Assembly: GCA_036881905.1 (NCBI GenBank)
Contig: JBAJNN010000003.1
Location: forward strand, 27,448 to 91,447
Length of the DNA: 64,000 nt
Reading direction: 5' to 3'
From: Hyphomicrobiales bacterium
GTDB taxonomy: Bacteria; Pseudomonadota; Alphaproteobacteria; Rhizobiales; Im1
The notes under the pieces were generated by a model that was not told the DNA's origin, searched no databases, and was given only the letters and a program-made list of their open reading frames with translations. The position numbers and the translations under genes are program-made. Below are positions 1 through 10,253 of this stretch, one piece after another (positions within the stretch are counted from its first letter, which is position 1; every line of letters begins with the position of its first letter).

Positions 1-1
1 A

Positions 2-526
2 AAAACAATTATCCAGAGGATATGCTTTTTTAAAATCCAACCTCTCGATAGTAGCGCCGTCATGTACTCAGGCAGCAAACTGAACTATTTGGTTTGTGTT
101 TTTATAAATGCCGCGATGGCCGAGCATCCCTTGTACTTCTGGACCGATAAGCTGGTTCACGAGGCCGCCCATCAAATGTTGCTTGCAATCATGCTTGAGG
201 AGGAGGTTGTGCTCAATCCGGATCGTGAACGTTACAAATCGCCCTTGCGAACCGAGGGGCGCACTTTAACCGGGATATACCATGCCGCGTTTGTCATATA
301 CAGAATCGTTCTTGCTTTTCATCACTTACTGCGCACATCCTGCTTATCCGATCGTGATCGCAAAGGGATCGAGCGCTCACTTTCAGACTATATCGTCAAA
401 TTCGATGCGGCCTATGAGGTCATACGGGCCAAAGGTCGGTTGACGGAATATGGATCCGCATTGATGGCGAGCTGTGAAAAAGCCGTGCGAAACTATGAGC
501 AAATGCATGATGCGACCCCTGTCTGA
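2..526 (+). CDS. HExxH-motif domain protein, 3' part (5' end outside the window). It resembles the HExxH peptide-modification family (aKG-HExxH-type peptide beta-hydroxylase-like).
   Basis: The frame is open from nt 2, with no stop before the listed Met at 62. It contains ...DKLVHEAAHQMLLAIMLEEE... (HExxH). The stop at 524-526 overlaps the start region of the next ORF. Confidence 0.5.
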   Translation, partial: KTIIQRICFFKIQPLDSSAVMYSGSKLNYLVCVFINAAMAEHPLYFWTDKLVHEAAHQMLLAIMLEEEVVLNPDRERYKSPLRTEGRTLTGIYHAAFVIYRIVLAFHHLLRTSCLSDRDRKGIERSLSDYIVKFDAAYEVIRAKGRLTEYGSALMASCEKAVRNYEQMHDATPV

Positions 527-899
527 AAAAGCAGAGGCTATGCTCAAGCGATTTTCTCCCGACGCATGCGAGCAGCTGGAACGCAAAGTAGGCCCGCTCG
601 CGCCGGAATTGGTTGACCGGTTGGTCCAGGCTCTTTACGACGATCTTTATCAAAGAAAAATATTGACGATCAGGGAGCGGCATATCGCAACCTTGTCGGC
701 CTTGGTCGCCATGGGCGACACGCAGCCGCAACTGCGGTTTCAAATGTTGGCGGCGTTTCATCTGGGCTTTACACGTTCTGAAATTGAGGAAATTCTGATA
801 CAAAACTCGGTTTTTTCCGGTTTTTCAAGGGCAATGAACGCGGCTATTATTCTAAAGGAGGTTCATGACACTTATACGGCGTTAGAAAAGGAAGACTGA
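507..899 (+). CDS. Carboxymuconolactone decarboxylase (CMD/AhpD-like) family protein
   Basis: ...LTIRERHIATLSALVAMGDTQPQLRFQMLAAFHLGFTRSEIEEILIQNSVFSGFSRAMNA... is a typical CMD-domain pattern. The start is uncertain: GTG 474, or ATG 495, 507 or 510. Confidence 0.6.
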   Translation: MMRPLSEKAEAMLKRFSPDACEQLERKVGPLAPELVDRLVQALYDDLYQRKILTIRERHIATLSALVAMGDTQPQLRFQMLAAFHLGFTRSEIEEILIQNSVFSGFSRAMNAAIILKEVHDTYTALEKED

Positions 900-900
900 A

Positions 901-2147
901 ATGGAGAGGCTTCCGGTTAAATTTTATCGGGTGCAATGTCTTTATCTCTTCTTGTCCGCCGCTCCCGATTCATTCTACCTCTATATGACACGATTTTTCA
1001 CTGAAAACAATATTTCTGAAACTTACCTTGGAACAAGTTTAAGCCTGGCTTCGGTTGCAAGTTTTAGTCAATTATTGTTGAGTTCCTTATTAAATTTATC
1101 GGGGAAGGAAAGATTCTTTAGCATTGCGTTTCCTTGCGCGGCGGCGTTTATGATCTGCGGCGCCGCTGTTATGAATCATGGGCAATCGCCGCGGGGCTGT
1201 TGACGGTTACGGCATGTTGGCTTGCCGCCGGCGGGGTCTTTGCCGCGATGGCAAGCGTTACGCTGGTTCCACGGCTTGTGGCCGACGACCGGGCCAAAAC
1301 GGCGTTTTCGCAAAAAACCGCCATATTTTCCCTTAAAGCCGTGATTGGGCCGATGCTCGGCGGGTTTGTCATATCCATGTTCGGGGGACGGTTTTTTCTG
1401 GGTTTCGTTGGAGTCGGCCTTTCTCTCATAAGTTTAATCTTTATAAGAGAAAAATTTGCTTTTTCACCAACAAATCCGCGAACCGATGAAAAATCCGTCA
1501 ATGGCTTCAATCTGGTTTTTAAAATCAAAACCGAGCTTTGCGGTTCCATCATTTCCGTGGTCTTCAACCGTGTCTTCAATCCGTTCCTGATTTTAATTCT
1601 GCCCGTCCTCATCATGGGGCATTATAAAATGACGGCGTTTCAGGTCGGCCTGCTTCAGGCGACATTCGCCGCCGGCGTCCTCCTGGGCGGCGGCTTTGTC
1701 GTCGAGCGCGTGAACGCCCTGATCGGCATGCGCAACGCCATTGCGCTCGGCGGCGCGCTGATCGCTGTTGCAATCCTGGCCTATGCTTTGACGCCAACGC
1801 CGTTTTTCGCCCTGTATGGTCTGTATCAGTTCGTTGCCGGCATGGGGCTGGCTCTGTTCAACGTCAATGTCACCACGATCCGTTGCCTGGCGACGCCGTC
1901 TCCATACAGAACCAAAATGGAATCGGCCTTTCTTCTGATCTGCATGAGTTCCATACCGGCCGGCCTGTGGCTGTTCGGCCATGTGCTCGTGAGGGGAAGT
2001 CTTTTTATGGCGTTGAGTCTGTGCGGCGTCATTCTTTTCCTCGCCGCTCTCGCCGTTCCCCATCTGTCGAAACTGGCCGTCATGGGGCAAGACGAGCTGG
2101 ATGGCGCCTATCGAAGATTTTACCCGGATGCGTTCGCCGGGCTCTAA
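901..2147 (+). pseudogene. MFS transporter split by a frameshift (ORFs 901..1203 and 1134..2147)
   Basis: ORF 901..1203 encodes N-terminal TM-like segments (..LGTSLSLASVASFSQLLLSSLL..AFPCAAAFMICGAAVMNH). The other frame continues with WAIAAGLLTVTACWLAAGGVFAAM... plus many more TM segments. Joined, this gives ~415 codons, a normal MFS length. The ATG at 901 abuts the CMD stop. Confidence 0.55.
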
Positions 2148-5298: not shown

Positions 5299-6585
5299 CT
5301 AGAATTTGTAGCGTTTTTTAACATGGGCGAATTGCCAGAGGTTGAGGGCCATTATCGAAAGCCCGGTCGAAATGGCCGCGCCCAGCAAACCATAAAAGGG
5401 AACCAGGGCAAGATTGCCGAAGAAATTCAGCACGCATGCGGTAAGGACGGACCAAGCGATCAACGCCGCCCCGCCGTTGATGAACATCACATTGGTGCAT
5501 GGGCCGATCATGGCGCTCGACAATTTCCCCAATGCGAGGAAAATGATGATGGAGAGGAAAATGCTCTTCCTCGGGATGGCGACCCACTGCGGCGCGAACG
5601 CGAAAACCAGCAAGAGAATCCCGAGGGCGAACACTGCCCATAGGGTCGATAGCGTTCTGGATAAATTGAACAGGTTTTTTGCATCCGGGCTTCGTTTTTC
5701 CTGGATGGATTTGGCGAAATCCGGAACGAAAATGGCGTTCACCGCCGATTTTCCAATGGCAATAAGCCCGACAATCGCCGTTATGATACCGTATTGGCCG
5801 ATTGCGGCGTCATTGACATAATAGTGCAGGATCAGGACGTCTTCGCTCAACATCAACGTATTCAGACCGGAAATCGCCAGAACCAGCATATGCTCGCGTT
5901 TTAGATTGAATCTGGTTTTTATAGCTGGATTTTCAAATAAATATGTTAATTTATATCCATGGTTTTTAATAAAAAAATTCAAAATTATTAAAATAATTAG
6001 TAAATATAATAATTGTCCATATAAAAAAGATTTGGATGGATAAATATTACCAATATAAAACATGGACACCGTAATGCCGACAGTCAGAACAGGTCGGATA
6101 ATACCCTGCATCAACCGGCTCCATATGACCTTTCGATACCCCTCCAGAGTCGCTAAAAAGAGCGAAGAAAGAATCCCCACAGCGGAAACCGGGCAAGCCA
6201 TTTTCAGGATAAAGGGGACGTCTCTACCGAACAAAGAGAGCGCAATCCATACCAAAACGCAAAAGGCAAGCAAAAGCAGCTGTGTCGAAAAAATGGCAAA
6301 GCCAAGCTGGACAATGTTTTCCGGGTCTTTTGCGATATTCCTGGTCAAGATTGCCGGCCATCCCAATGAAAAAACCATGGTCGGAATGGCGGCATAGGAC
6401 CACAGAATCGTTAATTGCCCCAGAGCGGCATGCGAGATCGACTCCGCAATCGCTATATTTCTGACATTGACCAATATTACGCCGCAGATATTGATCGCTA
6501 TAAGGAGCAATGCAGAGTTTCTAAACGACATATTTTTAGGGGCATTGGGCCGGTATTTCCAATCTCTGAAGGGTAAAACGTTCAT
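5299..6585 (-). CDS. Polytopic membrane protein, MOP/Wzx-type flippase/exporter family (polysaccharide-biosynthesis-protein-like)
   Basis: 428 aa, hydrophobic throughout with roughly 12 or more TM-like segments. It is the last gene of the minus-strand operon and contains an extremely AT-rich stretch (5941-6060). Confidence 0.5.
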   Translation of the reverse strand: MNVLPFRDWKYRPNAPKNMSFRNSALLLIAINICGVILVNVRNIAIAESISHAALGQLTILWSYAAIPTMVFSLGWPAILTRNIAKDPENIVQLGFAIFSTQLLLLAFCVLVWIALSLFGRDVPFILKMACPVSAVGILSSLFLATLEGYRKVIWSRLMQGIIRPVLTVGITVSMFYIGNIYPSKSFLYGQLLYLLIILIILNFFIKNHGYKLTYLFENPAIKTRFNLKREHMLVLAISGLNTLMLSEDVLILHYYVNDAAIGQYGIITAIVGLIAIGKSAVNAIFVPDFAKSIQEKRSPDAKNLFNLSRTLSTLWAVFALGILLLVFAFAPQWVAIPRKSIFLSIIIFLALGKLSSAMIGPCTNVMFINGGAALIAWSVLTACVLNFFGNLALVPFYGLLGAAISTGLSIMALNLWQFAHVKKRYKF

Positions 6586-6597
6586 CGGACCCGGTTC

Positions 6598-7479
6598 TCA
6601 ATCATTATGCTTTGCAGTTTCGCCATCGCCCGTATTATGGAGTATCGCACATGGGGCTTCCCATAAATCAGGGTAGGCCGGCATGGCGCTTTGCCGGCGC
6701 ACCCTTCCATCACTCGAGATGATGACGCCACCCGCCGGCGTATTCATTGCGATGTAGGTCTGCTTCTTGCCGATGAGCCTGCCATAGGCGGCGAAAGGTT
6801 GCGAATTTCGGTCTCCAGCGCCGATCTCAGGCCAACCGAAGGCGAAAAGATAAATCATGTCATCGTGCTCCGACGGCAAAGCGAGCATGTCTTGGGTGCG
6901 ATCGTCGATAATGGCCGGCGTCAGAAAAACGCCGAGTCCGGTTCGGGTGCAATGGAGACAGATATGCTGGCCGATTCGGCCCAGAGCCAGCAATCCGTCG
7001 CAATAGCTGGCCGGAGCATCGCAATCCGCCTTAACGCACAGCCACAAAACTGCTCCGGCTTTTCGCAACGGAAACTGCCCGATGCTGTTGGCGACGACTT
7101 GTTCCCGCTCCAGTTCCCCCTGTCTCTCCAGGGGTCCAGGGCCCGTTCGCGAAATATCATACAGGGTGCCGACATCCCCCTGAAACTTGGCGATCCGCGC
7201 AGAAATGGCGGGCCGGGTGAATTCTGCCGATTTTGCCACGGCCTTTACAAGATTGCCGAACACGTCACGGGACAAAGGTTCATCGCGGAAATTCCGCGTC
7301 GTGCGCCTCTTCATCGATACCGATCTGAGTTCGGCCAGTGGTGGCGTTTTTGCTGACAGTCGCCTGTTGTCCGGCGCATTTTCGTCGGAAATATCGGTGC
7401 CGCAGGCTCGGATATTGAGCCAGGCGAGCAGGCTCATATACCAGTTCGACCGGCACCATTGTTCGATATGCGCTTCCAT
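6598..7479 (-). CDS. Nitroreductase-family / SagB-like oxidoreductase (putative)
   Basis: ...PPLAELRSVSMKRRTTRNFRDEPLSRDVFGNLV... is the nitroreductase N-terminal RRS-x-R-x-F signature. The start is uncertain (TTG 7488, ATG 7479, 7437 or 7314). The N-terminal region overlaps the preceding ORF out of frame. Confidence 0.5.
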   Translation of the reverse strand: MEAHIEQWCRSNWYMSLLAWLNIRACGTDISDENAPDNRRLSAKTPPLAELRSVSMKRRTTRNFRDEPLSRDVFGNLVKAVAKSAEFTRPAISARIAKFQGDVGTLYDISRTGPGPLERQGELEREQVVANSIGQFPLRKAGAVLWLCVKADCDAPASYCDGLLALGRIGQHICLHCTRTGLGVFLTPAIIDDRTQDMLALPSEHDDMIYLFAFGWPEIGAGDRNSQPFAAYGRLIGKKQTYIAMNTPAGGVIISSDGRVRRQSAMPAYPDLWEAPCAILHNTGDGETAKHND

Positions 7480-8275
7480 ATCGCGCAATGTCGGCCAGGG
7501 TGCGGGTGGTTGTTGCTGTTGTCGAGCCGAAAGCCCGATTATGCCGGAACAGGCAATACAGTGCGATCAAGGGATCATCGATTGGCGTTACCTTAGGTTC
7601 GGCGAGGCCCTTGATATGGACCAGCTCGACGATCCGCCCGATGGGGCTTAAGGGACCTGTCTTAATTGTGGTCCGCATCTCATTTACTGACATGGGTTTT
7701 TTGGTCAAGCGGCCATTGTGTTTGCCGCAACGGACCAGAGGCGCGCGCAGGAGCGGCCAAGCCATTTTCGACCAATTCTCGATCGCCGAAGTTTCGTCGG
7801 ATAAGAGACGCCACCCGCTCCTTTGGCAGAGATGCAAAGATACCGTTGTCTTGCCGCTTTCTCTTTCCCCCAATAGCAAAGTTGCACGCCCGGTATCGGG
7901 GTTGAACACGCATCCGCCATGCAAGGCGCTGTAGCGATCGCGCAGCTGAGGCAAGCAATAGGGAAGGAGCACCGGGTCTGGGTGACGCCACTTCGCCCAG
8001 CGCCCGCCCCAGTTGCGGATGTCAACGCCGAGATCCTGGCACCGCCCGGGCGGCTGGCAGCGAAAGAGATAACGAAAGCGGTCCTTTTCAAGGGGCTCTC
8101 TCAGCCGCACGATAAAGTCCGGGGAGCGCTCCTCCGGCGGTCTTCTGTGGATATAGAGGTGATGGTCGATATGGGCCTTGGTCCGACGGCAGGCGCTCTC
8201 AAGCTGTACCCGCAAACCAAGAGTGTCGAAATGGGATATATCCGAATCGACGTTTTTGCCGACAGCCTGCTTCAT
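7280..8275 (-). CDS. HPr-kinase-related (HprK C-terminal-domain-like) P-loop kinase
   Basis: ...GRATLLLGERESGKTTVSLHLCQRSGWRLLSDETSAI... is a P-loop followed by the acidic segment seen in HprK-like kinases. The ATG at 8275 overlaps the upstream stop (ATGA). The C-terminal ~40 aa look non-native (R/K/Q-rich tail). Confidence 0.5.
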   Translation of the reverse strand: MKQAVGKNVDSDISHFDTLGLRVQLESACRRTKAHIDHHLYIHRRPPEERSPDFIVRLREPLEKDRFRYLFRCQPPGRCQDLGVDIRNWGGRWAKWRHPDPVLLPYCLPQLRDRYSALHGGCVFNPDTGRATLLLGERESGKTTVSLHLCQRSGWRLLSDETSAIENWSKMAWPLLRAPLVRCGKHNGRLTKKPMSVNEMRTTIKTGPLSPIGRIVELVHIKGLAEPKVTPIDDPLIALYCLFRHNRAFGSTTATTTRTLADIARYGSAYRTMVPVELVYEPARLAQYPSLRHRYFRRKCAGQQATVSKNATTGRTQIGIDEEAHDAEFPR

Positions 8276-8937
8276 CGGACCATTTCCATCTGACGCCGGG
8301 TTTCTTCAGGATCGCGAAACGAAAATGTCATATTCATTCGCATGCGACTTGGGTGTGAGAGATCGAAATGGGGCCGGTTGGATTTATGGAAGATCGACGG
8401 ATTGAACAGGATCGCCCGGTTGAACCGGTAAGGTATGACCACCGGCGCCTGCCTAGCATGTTCCCCGACATAGGCCCTAGACGCCTCTCCCGATGCCAGA
8501 TACGCGCTGAACGGCATATCAGCGGGCCGCCGCGCATCGTAAAGCACCAACCCGCCGGTCTCACGGTCGAGATTATACCGATCGGGCGTCAACCAATAGG
8601 TGATCGTCAAATCGCCGAAATCGGCATGGACGTTGCCGTCGGTATTTTTCGCATATAAAAGCGCCCAGTACTCCGCCAGACGGTATTGACGGCCGAAATT
8701 TCTCCTTATTGGCGTTTCCAGGGCCTCAACAACCCTCACCGCCATATCCGTTTTCGGCCTTGTATTATGCAAATGCTTTGAGATGGGATTTTTAAGTCTC
8801 CACATCTGGTTGCGAATCAACTCGTCCTGAAGACGAATCGCACCCTGCCGCGTCATGAAATCGTCAATGACGACGTGTGAATCGCCTGATTTCCAGTATT
8901 CACGCGACACCTTGTTCCAATCGATATGCTCAAACAT
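8272..8937 (-). CDS. 2OG-Fe(II) oxygenase (prolyl-4-hydroxylase-like) family protein
   Basis: ...TDGNVHADFGDLTITYWLTPDRYNLDRETGGLVLYD... gives the HxD. ...PYRFNRAILFNPSIFHKSN... gives the distal His. This is the typical facial-triad layout. Confidence 0.55.
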   Translation of the reverse strand: MFEHIDWNKVSREYWKSGDSHVVIDDFMTRQGAIRLQDELIRNQMWRLKNPISKHLHNTRPKTDMAVRVVEALETPIRRNFGRQYRLAEYWALLYAKNTDGNVHADFGDLTITYWLTPDRYNLDRETGGLVLYDARRPADMPFSAYLASGEASRAYVGEHARQAPVVIPYRFNRAILFNPSIFHKSNRPHFDLSHPSRMRMNMTFSFRDPEETRRQMEMVR

Positions 8938-9024
8938 CGAAAGATTGCGGATGATAGCCGGTCACCATAGAGAAGTCACTCTTGCCCACGCTTCTCTCAA
9001 ATCAGCGCTCGGACCGGACCCATC

Positions 9025-9048
9025 GGGCAACGACGGATGCCGTTGCCC
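9025..9048 (-). promoter_or_regulatory. Intercistronic stem-loop (GGGCAACG / CGTTGCCC, 8-nt loop) between the 158-aa ORF and the oxygenase gene
   Basis: A perfect 8-bp inverted repeat was read directly from the sequence. No U-tract follows it on the minus strand, so it is more likely an mRNA-stability or partial-attenuation element than a full terminator. Confidence 0.4.
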
Positions 9049-9055
9049 GAGAACA

Positions 9056-9532
9056 TCACCGAGAAACCGTCTCTACGCGGCTTTCCTTGTTTTTTGCAAA
9101 GTTCGGCGAACCATGGAACGGATCGACAGAACCGGACTCGCCGGATTGCAACATCGCATATTGAACCGGGCTTAAATCCTCAAGAAACTCGTTGCCGGAC
9201 GGGATCACGAAGGAAATGCCGTAGCCGCCATAGTCCGAGGGTTGCTCGATTCGATAGGCCTGAAGCTGATCATAGGTCAAAAAATACGACTTATTCCGCG
9301 CCAGATGCTGAATGATAACAGTTGGCTGGCCGGTCCCCGATGCGTTGAACGGGGGTGTCGCCTCGATCAGCTCATTGTCGGGGATCGAAAAGGTGACGAC
9401 GCCGTGATCGATGTGAACCAACTTTTCCGACGACATCTCATAATTCGCCAATGCCTGCGAATCGATGAGATAGGCGCAACCGACTCGGGGGTCTTGGATC
9501 AAAACACTTGGCAGTTGGTAAAAGCGTTGCAT
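9056..9532 (-). CDS. Hypothetical acidic 158-aa protein with no recognisable family; first gene of the modification-like operon
   Basis: ATG at 9532 (the ORF track starts at TTG 9538). It is preceded by AAGGAGG (9547-9541) with an 8-nt spacer. A consensus promoter lies upstream and a stem-loop lies 8 nt after the stop. Confidence 0.55.
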   Translation of the reverse strand: MQRFYQLPSVLIQDPRVGCAYLIDSQALANYEMSSEKLVHIDHGVVTFSIPDNELIEATPPFNASGTGQPTVIIQHLARNKSYFLTYDQLQAYRIEQPSDYGGYGISFVIPSGNEFLEDLSPVQYAMLQSGESGSVDPFHGSPNFAKNKESRVETVSR

Positions 9533-9584
9533 TTTCAAAGCCTCCTTATGGAAGTTTTTCTGCCTTGAAAAACAGATCTTCCCG

Positions 9585-9626
9585 AAGCTATAGCTTGATT
9601 ATAGCGGCCAGATTCGGTTATGTCAA
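9585..9626 (-). promoter_or_regulatory. Consensus sigma70-type promoter (TTGACA-N17-TATAAT) with a 12-bp perfect palindrome AAGCTATAGCTT over the expected transcription start
   Basis: On the minus strand the -35 TTGACA is at 9626-9621, the spacer is 17 nt, and the -10 TATAAT is at 9603-9598. The palindrome is at 9596-9585. All of this was read directly. Confidence 0.6.
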
Positions 9627-9860
9627 GCGGAAACATTCTTTTGCGCCGAATGCGCCTTATCTGCGGAAATTCTGCCCGTGGGCGCGGCAACCGGATTGAT
9701 TTTGCTCTTAAGCGCTTTCTCGTGATTCCGGCGTTTTGAGATGAGGCGCTTAAGGGGTATCCATGTGGTCTATTAAGAGAATAAATTTCATGATCGACTT
9801 GATCTGCGTGGTAATGTGGTATAAGGAGCGCTTTCGTCGTCTGCGGTGAAGAGACGGATT

Positions 9861-9936
9861 AGGGGTGTAGCTCAGTCGGTAGAGCGGCGGTCTCCAAAAC
9901 CGCAGGTCGGGGGTTCGATCCCCTCCGCCCCTGCCA
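9861..9936 (+). tRNA. trnW: tRNA-Trp (anticodon CCA)
   Basis: The cloverleaf was folded by hand. Acceptor stem: AGGGGTG/CGCCCCT. D arm: GCTC..GAGC. Anticodon loop CTCCAAA with CCA at 9893-9895. T arm: GGGGG-TTCGATC-CCCTC. A 3' CCA is encoded. The position upstream of secE-nusG is the classical one. Confidence 0.92.
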
Positions 9937-10055
9937 GATGGTCAGGGCAGGGTGGGCTGCGGACAGGTTTTCTCGATTGCGTTGCGTATAAAATGATAAG
10001 ATGGCCGGCTTGAGGTTATTCGCGGTGTCATTGGCTACTGGAATTGGCGGGAAAA

Positions 10056-10253
10056 ATGCTTAAGACGAGCCCGTTAGCGTTTATCCGGCAGGTTCGTTCC
10101 GAGGTGGCGAAAGTAACCTGGCCGACGCGCAAGGAAACCGTTATTACAACGGTCATGGTTGTGGTCATGTCGGTTTTTGCGTCGATTTTTTTCCTGGTGG
10201 CCGATAGTGTTCTTGGTGGGATGGTCGGTTACATTCTGGGAATCGGCGCCTGA
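10056..10253 (+). CDS. secE: Preprotein translocase subunit SecE
   Basis: MLKTSPLAFIRQVRSEVAKVTWPTRKETVITTVMVVVMSVFASIFFLV...; the position is tRNA-Trp/secE/nusG. The ORF track starts at TTG 10044; ATG 10056 is preferred. Confidence 0.85.
   Translation: MLKTSPLAFIRQVRSEVAKVTWPTRKETVITTVMVVVMSVFASIFFLVADSVLGGMVGYILGIGA

Follow-up and report, generated by a model that had tools for sequence, protein, structure and literature searches.

This report concerns positions 9530-9626 of a 64,000-nucleotide (nt) stretch of a Hyphomicrobiales draft genome (the window; C3:27448-91447 of an assembly of 2.03 Mb and 57% GC), where a promoter, a leader and a ribosome-binding site precede gene 1, which encodes a 158-aa protein on the minus strand. 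We consider that this sequence is probably the expression signal of a horizontally acquired operon, in which a housekeeping-sigma promoter, a leader of ~59 nt and a near-ideal ribosome-binding site would drive gene 1. A preliminary description of the region had called gene 1 an orphan and had proposed that a palindrome over the transcription start gates its expression through a repressor. Gene 1 instead heads a conserved cassette found in eleven other loci (Pseudomonas, Fischerella, Kroppenstedtia and metagenomes), and the palindrome is most likely an incidental, copy-specific feature and not a dedicated operator.

Results

The promoter and ribosome-binding site of gene 1

Read on the minus strand, the -35 hexamer TTGACA (9621-9626) is followed by the 17-nt spacer TAACCGAATCTGGCCGC (9604-9620) and the -10 hexamer TATAAT (9598-9603), both hexamers being found by reading the sequence and by a pattern scan. 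C9627 extends the -35 to CTTGAC, the rhizobial -35 consensus. The geometry of the promoter predicts a transcription start at 9588-9591, 7-10 nt past the -10, and hence a leader of ~59 nt (9533-9591). The Shine-Dalgarno (SD) sequence AAGGAGG (9541-9547), which is complementary to the 16S 3' end ...CACCUCCUUUC, lies 8 nt ahead of the ATG at 9532-9530. Gene 1 starts at this ATG rather than at the TTG at 9538; all homologues begin at the equivalent Met (MQRF...). The preliminary description had placed the -35, spacer, -10, palindrome, SD and ATG exactly where we find them, and the hexamers, their spacing and the SD are perfect and match the 158-aa gene in position and orientation.

The promoter sits in a 328-nt intergenic region and points toward gene 1, with the -10 ending 65 nt before the ATG, and the pattern scanner found TTGACA-17-TATAAT to be the sole 12/12 promoter-like site within the first 20 kb of the window. 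It thus resembles the canonical sigma-70 consensus in all twelve positions and in its 17-nt spacing, at a distance that fits the gene. It differs from a canonical promoter in that the spacer carries no TG of an extended -10, in that the start is a predicted one, and in that only a weak AT-rich tract, AAAAGAATGTTT, occupies the UP-element position (about -51 to -40). The spacer does contain one GANTC (GAATC, 9615-9611), the CcrM methylation motif of alphaproteobacteria; this site (9611-9615) does not match what we take to be the extended GcrA-type context. Judged from these signals, the site is most likely an active promoter with a strong ribosome-binding site for gene 1.

An error of a single assembler is argued against by the Logan assembly of run SRR27962760, which is 100% identical to the window over 12.2 kb including the promoter and was possibly made from the same reads. 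We also considered a synthetic or vector origin of the promoter and rejected it: the region lies inside a 136-kb contig, and the same sequence is present in the Logan assembly. To our knowledge, the spacer matches no standard synthetic promoter.

Frequency of the exact consensus and promoter usage of the host

We asked how often the exact consensus occurs. In the 2.03-Mb genome there is one copy of TTGACA-N16-18-TATAAT, with 0.33 expected from independent hexamer frequencies (~0.11 for the 17-nt spacing only). Across 31 genomes of the order, TTGACA-N17-TATAAT has one match, which is this site, and the reversed control pattern has 5. The full consensus is therefore as rare as the preliminary description had held, being present in a single copy in the genome and in the 31 genomes, though composition predicts about that; the rarity is what one would expect and by itself proves little. 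What makes the promoter credible is its position: it is intergenic, aimed at a gene and 65 nt before the ATG, and a 7-base SD follows. As a rough estimate, a chance match that also pointed at a gene from 15-200 nt upstream would arise ~0.03-0.1 times per genome. As a separate observation, the absence of the exact consensus from all 30 other genomes, set against 5 reversed-control matches, hints that full consensus is avoided in the order.

The host polymerase appears to use consensus sequences of the TTGACA/TATAAT type. Sites matching 11 of the 12 positions number 22 in the genome (12.7 expected), and one of them, CTTGACA-N18-TATAAC (C9:55108-55137, plus strand), lies ~370 nt before the 16S gene with an AT-rich tract upstream and is likely the rRNA promoter of this genome. 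This candidate, together with the excess of 11/12 sites, suggests that the strongest native promoter of the host is of the same type. The rhizobial sigma-70 consensus is CTTGAC-N17-CTATAT (PMC2873474), which the promoter of gene 1 matches at 11 of 12 positions. A further 11/12 site, TTGACA-18-TAGAAT, is found in the first 120 nt of two other contigs of this genome (C34:1-120 and C46:1-120), which are identical over that length and then diverge; their shared start probably belongs to a repeat at which the assembly broke.

The edge of the acquired DNA

To the right of the promoter lies tRNA-Trp (CCA) (9861-9936, plus strand), the first gene of a conserved secE-nusG-rplKAJL-rpoBC block. Among family-level relatives, this tRNA is all that is conserved upstream of gene 1, and the 158-aa gene is absent from 40 relatives of the genome. 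The closest comparison comes from L018, a Tara metagenome contig with 94% nucleotide identity to the window over 10.4 kb of the tRNA-Trp/secE block. A candidate native promoter of tRNA-Trp/secE (CTTGAT, 16 nt ending in TGG, TATAAG; 9798-9825, plus strand) is conserved in L018; it diverges from the acquired promoter at a distance of ~170 nt.

Homology with L018 runs from 9624 rightwards, which places the synteny breakpoint at 9621-9627 with a resolution of ~+/-3 nt. On the promoter strand, L018 reads ...CCGC-CTG-CAC... and the window ...CCGC-TTG-ACA... The -35 hexamer thus straddles the breakpoint, and the spacer, -10, palindrome, leader and operon are all non-syntenic with L018. With collinearity to L018 starting at 9624, the promoter occupies the outermost edge of the acquired DNA. 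Left of the breakpoint, L018 carries an unrelated membrane-transporter-like gene (1-1011, minus strand) in place of the cassette. That gene has four tandem paralogues in the present genome, on contig C10 (64-74% identity), and no orthologue there.

Hybrid promoters arise at insertion junctions, for example where an outward-facing -35 of an insertion sequence (IS) joins a resident -10. The present promoter is similar in that the break in collinearity falls in or at the -35, so that its two halves are possibly of different origin. It differs from such junction promoters in that the acquired side supplies the -10 and the native side 'TTG' at most, and a resolution of +/-3 nt is no proof of a hybrid. 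No IS, terminal direct or inverted repeats, target duplication or mobile-element ends were found around the cassette.

The palindrome over the expected start

A perfect 12-bp palindrome, AAGCTATAGCTT (9585-9596), spans the expected start; its symmetry extends no further. The single base C9597 separates it from the -10, and its left half is a second copy, 11 nt further downstream, of the GCTATA in the -10 region. The repressor model of the preliminary description can be put as follows: AAGCTATAGCTT would be bound by a dimeric, sequence-specific repressor whose gene lies elsewhere in the genome and which would block the start of a very strong promoter. The geometry of the dyad speaks for this model: it is perfect over 12 bp and centred on the expected +1, the classic position for steric repression, as in lacO1, tetO and the operators of phages and toxin-antitoxin operons. 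Nor is chance an easy explanation, because the 826 palindromes with arms of at least 6 in the genome (4.1e-4 per nt) correspond to a probability of ~1.2% per 30-nt stretch. Moreover, if the cassette is toxic, gating of so strong a promoter would be of benefit.

The remaining comparisons turn the other way. Unlike operators of the lacO1 or tetO type, the dyad has 12 bp without a spacer, is not conserved, occurs at one site and has no cognate regulator gene. Searching the genome for further copies, as the preliminary description had suggested, gave neither a second copy nor an 11/12 copy, and 10/12 matches numbered 30 (44 expected). The dyad is absent upstream of gene 1 in 8 other cassette loci, which have no dyads at equivalent places either. 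A metagenome scan for the -10 plus palindrome (TATAATNNAAGCTATAGCTT) returned 56 matches, all in unrelated AT-rich contigs, none with a gene 1 homologue and none with TTGACA at the -35, so that no related promoter-dyad module was seen. No helix-turn-helix or ribbon-helix-helix gene is encoded in the operon or its flanks, where the neighbour is tRNA-Trp, and no DNA-binding gene was found in or beside the cassette in its relatives; the earlier remark that the operon holds no regulator thus applies here and in these relatives. Finally, the DNA is foreign, and one would hardly expect a repressor of the host to have its one, perfectly matching site there. Geometry therefore favors an operator, and conservation, further copies and an adjacent regulator gene do not; we regard repressor gating through the palindrome as unlikely.

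The promoter could also be real and held down non-specifically. MucR/Ros is an alphaproteobacterial silencer that coats acquired DNA rich in AT and in T-A steps, and one MucR/Ros protein is encoded in the genome (172.9 bits). The operon has a GC content of 50-54%, as compared with 57% for the genome, and the -10 and dyad are rich in TA steps, so the palindrome might be just a part of an AT-rich patch. The drop in GC is modest, however, and MucR needs no dyad, which leaves the perfection of this one unexplained. Silencing of this kind is an improbable account of the region as a whole, although, should the promoter be held down at all, the single MucR/Ros gene and a dedicated repressor are equally good candidates.

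We then considered whether the dyad could act in cis, either as a -10-like pause element (TATAGC) or, in the RNA, through a 5'-terminal stem between AGCUUC and the SD region (GGAGGCU) that would tune message stability or translation. The recurrence of GCTATA 11 nt after that of the -10 is in keeping with the first form, but TATAGC lacks the critical final T of the -10 that a sigma-dependent pause element needs. The second form agrees with the minimum-energy fold of the leader (-15.2 kcal/mol), in which AGCUUC (9589-9584) and the GAGGCU of the SD (9544-9539) form a stem that encloses an inner hairpin (9582-9550). This fold is not clearly better than shuffled sequences (z = -1.3 against dinucleotide shuffles, -2.4 against mononucleotide shuffles), and no comparable leader structure occurs in the cassette loci L005, L007 or L011. 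An Rfam scan of 8800-10100 found tRNA-Trp alone and no leader RNA family. A role in cis is very unlikely.

Expression signals of gene 1 in other cassette loci

If the sequence in front of gene 1 is its expression signal, then other copies of the cassette may carry signals at the same place. L005 has TTGAAA-17-TATACT 60 nt ahead of the gene 1 ATG, and L007 and L011 have TTGACA-18-GATATT 40-43 nt ahead of it. Good promoters are thus found before gene 1 in three host lineages. SD-like sequences (AAGGAGA, AAAGGAG, GGAG, AAGGA) precede the ATG in all loci, and beyond the SD the upstream regions of nine loci share no motif.

A second shared element follows the gene. In the window, a GC-rich hairpin with a 10-bp stem (TCGGGCAACG / CGTTGCCCGA) and an 8-nt loop (9023-9050, minus strand) lies just past the gene 1 stop and has no U-tract. 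GC-rich hairpins with stems of 8-16 bp are found directly 3' of gene 1 in 9/9 loci, and in 8 of these they are at least 2 standard deviations better than shuffles. Because these hairpins have no U-tracts, they may serve in RNA stabilisation or processing and not in termination. In the microcin C operon, an intergenic terminator and ribosome-dependent stabilisation give a short, very abundant mccA transcript (PMC4231749). By analogy, the message and protein of gene 1 would be present far above the enzymes that follow, by the same logic as in mccA.

Gene 1 and the cassette

Gene 1 (9056-9532, minus strand) encodes two predicted beta-beta-alpha-beta repeats, a conserved ...MLQSGE motif and a tail that varies. 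Its family is rare: 5.8 billion clustered proteins include 19 close homologues, and a profile search returned 80 clusters at 50% identity among 1.84 billion; the hosts are Pseudomonas, Fischerella, Kroppenstedtia and metagenome bacteria. Sequence searches gave no match in Pfam, NCBIfam or the Protein Data Bank (PDB). The predicted model has a mean local confidence (pLDDT) of 65 overall and 85-90 in the core, and found no fold match in the PDB (best Foldseek E-value 0.4). Among close relatives, residues 1-135 are conserved and the tail is hypervariable. In the wider family (P0031-P0102), many members end 2-10 residues past the conserved (L/M)LQS(G/N)(E/T) motif, and for this reason the tail is unlikely to be the core of a classical ribosomally synthesised and post-translationally modified peptide (RiPP). 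One family member, P0074 (2208 aa), contains ten half-domain repeats.

The other genes of the cassette lie downstream on the same strand. Gene 2 (8272-8937) encodes a 2-oxoglutarate (2OG)/Fe(II) oxygenase in which H104, D106, H184 and R200 are invariant; its AlphaFold model (pLDDT 83) matches ColD, TlxI, HygX and PhyH with a Foldseek probability of 1.0. Gene 3 (7280-8275) encodes an HprK-related or ScmC-like P-loop kinase, with HprK_rel_A and ScmC matches that are below the cut-offs; ScmC is the SynChlorMet cassette protein of NCBIfam. Intact gene 4 products have 645-719 aa and two SagB-like nitroreductase domains (TIGR04511 and TIGR03605, below the curated cut-offs). Gene 6 (5299-6585), the last gene of the operon, encodes an exporter of the MOP/Polysacc_synt type. 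No YcaO, lanthionine, radical-SAM or recognition-element domain was found in the cassette, and our literature search found nothing relevant on ScmC or on this combination of enzymes.

In other hosts, one of two additional genes accompanies the cassette. A GNAT acetyltransferase is present in L002, L004, L006, L007, L008 and L011, and a leucyl-tRNA synthetase (LeuRS) gene (760 bits to leuS_bact) in L005 (12272-14803), L013 (4510-7032) and L010 (2508-5252, minus strand), in two arrangements and from two lineages. Between the L010 LeuRS and its counterparts in L005 and L013, identity is only 34%, as compared with 63-72% identity among the gene 1 proteins; LeuRS has therefore been recruited more than once. 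Producers of aminoacyl-tRNA-synthetase inhibitors are known to protect themselves with a GNAT or a resistant copy of the synthetase, such as MccE2 and AgnB2 (PMC8323819). The association with GNAT and LeuRS genes suggests that the product of the cassette is aimed at an aminoacyl-tRNA synthetase, namely LeuRS. Several cassette loci adjoin integrase or IS66 genes. In the Pseudomonas loci L004 (7094-7873) and L006 (7095-7874), a Fic-domain gene lies directly upstream of gene 1 on the same strand.

The copy in the window is defective

In the window, gene 4 is a remnant (6598-7488, minus strand) that retains only its last ~265 codons with the C-terminal nitroreductase/SagB-like domain; the first SagB-like domain has been lost. 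The genome holds a second, diverged copy of the cassette (C14:43577-47929, corresponding to L009 4578-8930; 68-69% nucleotide identity), which comprises the tail of gene 2 and genes 3, 4 and 6, has many in-frame stops and contains neither gene 1 nor an equivalent promoter. Because the C14 copy has 1,276 nt between two blocks that abut in the window at ~7494, the window copy carries a deletion. At its junction (7493-7495), ~1.28 kb are missing, which held the 3' end of gene 3 and ~430 N-terminal codons of gene 4. This deletion explains the ~200-nt out-of-frame overlap of genes 3 and 4 (7280-7488) and the non-native last ~59 residues of the kinase. Genes 1, 2 and 6 are intact. The window copy is accompanied by no GNAT gene and no second LeuRS gene. 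Since gene 4 lacks its N-terminal 430 codons and neither immunity gene is present, a normal product is hardly possible: the cassette in the window can probably no longer make its original product, and the strongest-looking promoter of the genome thus probably fronts a non-productive operon.

Alternatively, the 12/12 match could be a chance event or a relic at a rearrangement junction in front of this decaying operon, without a selected role; any transcription from it would then be weak, silenced or of no consequence. In favor of this reading, the operon is broken and its second copy on C14 is a pseudogene array; 0.11-0.33 exact matches per genome are expected by chance, and the order as a whole shows no enrichment of them; and full-consensus promoters can be limited at promoter escape, as known from work in E. 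coli, which could apply to this one. Nonetheless, the placement and orientation of the promoter, its distance from the ATG and the 7-base SD are mutually consistent, genes 1, 2 and 6 have remained intact, and good promoters occur at the corresponding position in related cassettes. Selected or not, a full consensus outside coding DNA should bind polymerase. We find an origin by chance without a role quite improbable.

Discussion

We favor the view that a sigma-70-type promoter, a leader and an SD sequence drive gene 1 of a rare, five-gene cassette of the peptide-modification type. The promoter would either have arrived as the first bases of the insert or have been completed by the junction, and it is probably constitutive or just globally modulated. 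Across unrelated hosts, the cassette keeps not a sequence but a design, in which gene 1 is preceded by a strong SD and followed by a GC-rich hairpin. This design would make the gene 1 product far more abundant than the enzymes, as in substrate-first operons such as those of RiPP precursors and mccA.

Several observations count against this view. The exact consensus, at one copy in this genome, is just mildly unexpected (0.11-0.33 expected), and its count across the 31 genomes (1) is no higher than chance or than the reversed control (5). The closest cassette, L002, in which gene 1 is 75% identical, has no good promoter in the 298 nt upstream (best site 8/12). The hairpin past gene 1 in the window is the weakest of the nine (z ~ -1). 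The breakpoint is defined by one close relative only, whose left flank is also rearranged. Finally, a perfect 12-bp dyad exactly over +1 has a chance expectation of ~1%, so that 'incidental' is not a safe dismissal.

Among known systems, the mccA-type operon (PMC4231749) is the nearest in layout: it too has a small first gene with strong translation signals, then a hairpin, then enzymes and an exporter in the same operon. A likeness to the immunity of microcin C and agrocin 84 producers (PMC8323819) is seen in the GNAT or extra aminoacyl-tRNA synthetase carried by relatives of the cassette. The differences are substantial. Gene 1 encodes a predicted folded protein of 158 aa and not a heptapeptide, the hairpins of the cassette have no U-tracts, and the cassette contains no MccB-like adenylyltransferase. 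The mcc promoter depends on sigma-S and CRP, whereas the window has a full sigma-70 consensus.

These comparisons lead to a tentative proposal, which is possible though we hold it with considerable doubt: the cassette may represent an undescribed family for a peptide-derived antimetabolite. In this proposal, gene 1 would supply an excess of a folded scaffold of ~135 aa, which a 2OG oxygenase, an HprK-like kinase and a double SagB-like dehydrogenase would tailor near (L/M)LQS(G/N)(E/T), and the exported product would inhibit LeuRS. The choice of target follows from the presence of a GNAT or LeuRS copy in cassettes, the LeuRS genes being of two unrelated lineages. The copy in the window would then be a disarmed remnant whose promoter still fires.

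Our results also advise caution, in that a perfect dyad over +1 is insufficient to call an operator. Taken alone, the promoter is of the ordinary housekeeping kind, although unusually perfect. It locates the edge of the acquired block to within a few bases, and the case shows how foreign operons can arrive with, or gain at a junction, a maximal promoter. The promoter, leader and SD form a compact natural module that is a candidate expression part for alphaproteobacteria. The cassette that the promoter marks is the more novel object. Because the promoter and the positionally conserved hairpin mark gene 1 as a product that would be made in excess, the 158-aa protein may be treated as the substrate or scaffold of an uncharacterised cassette.

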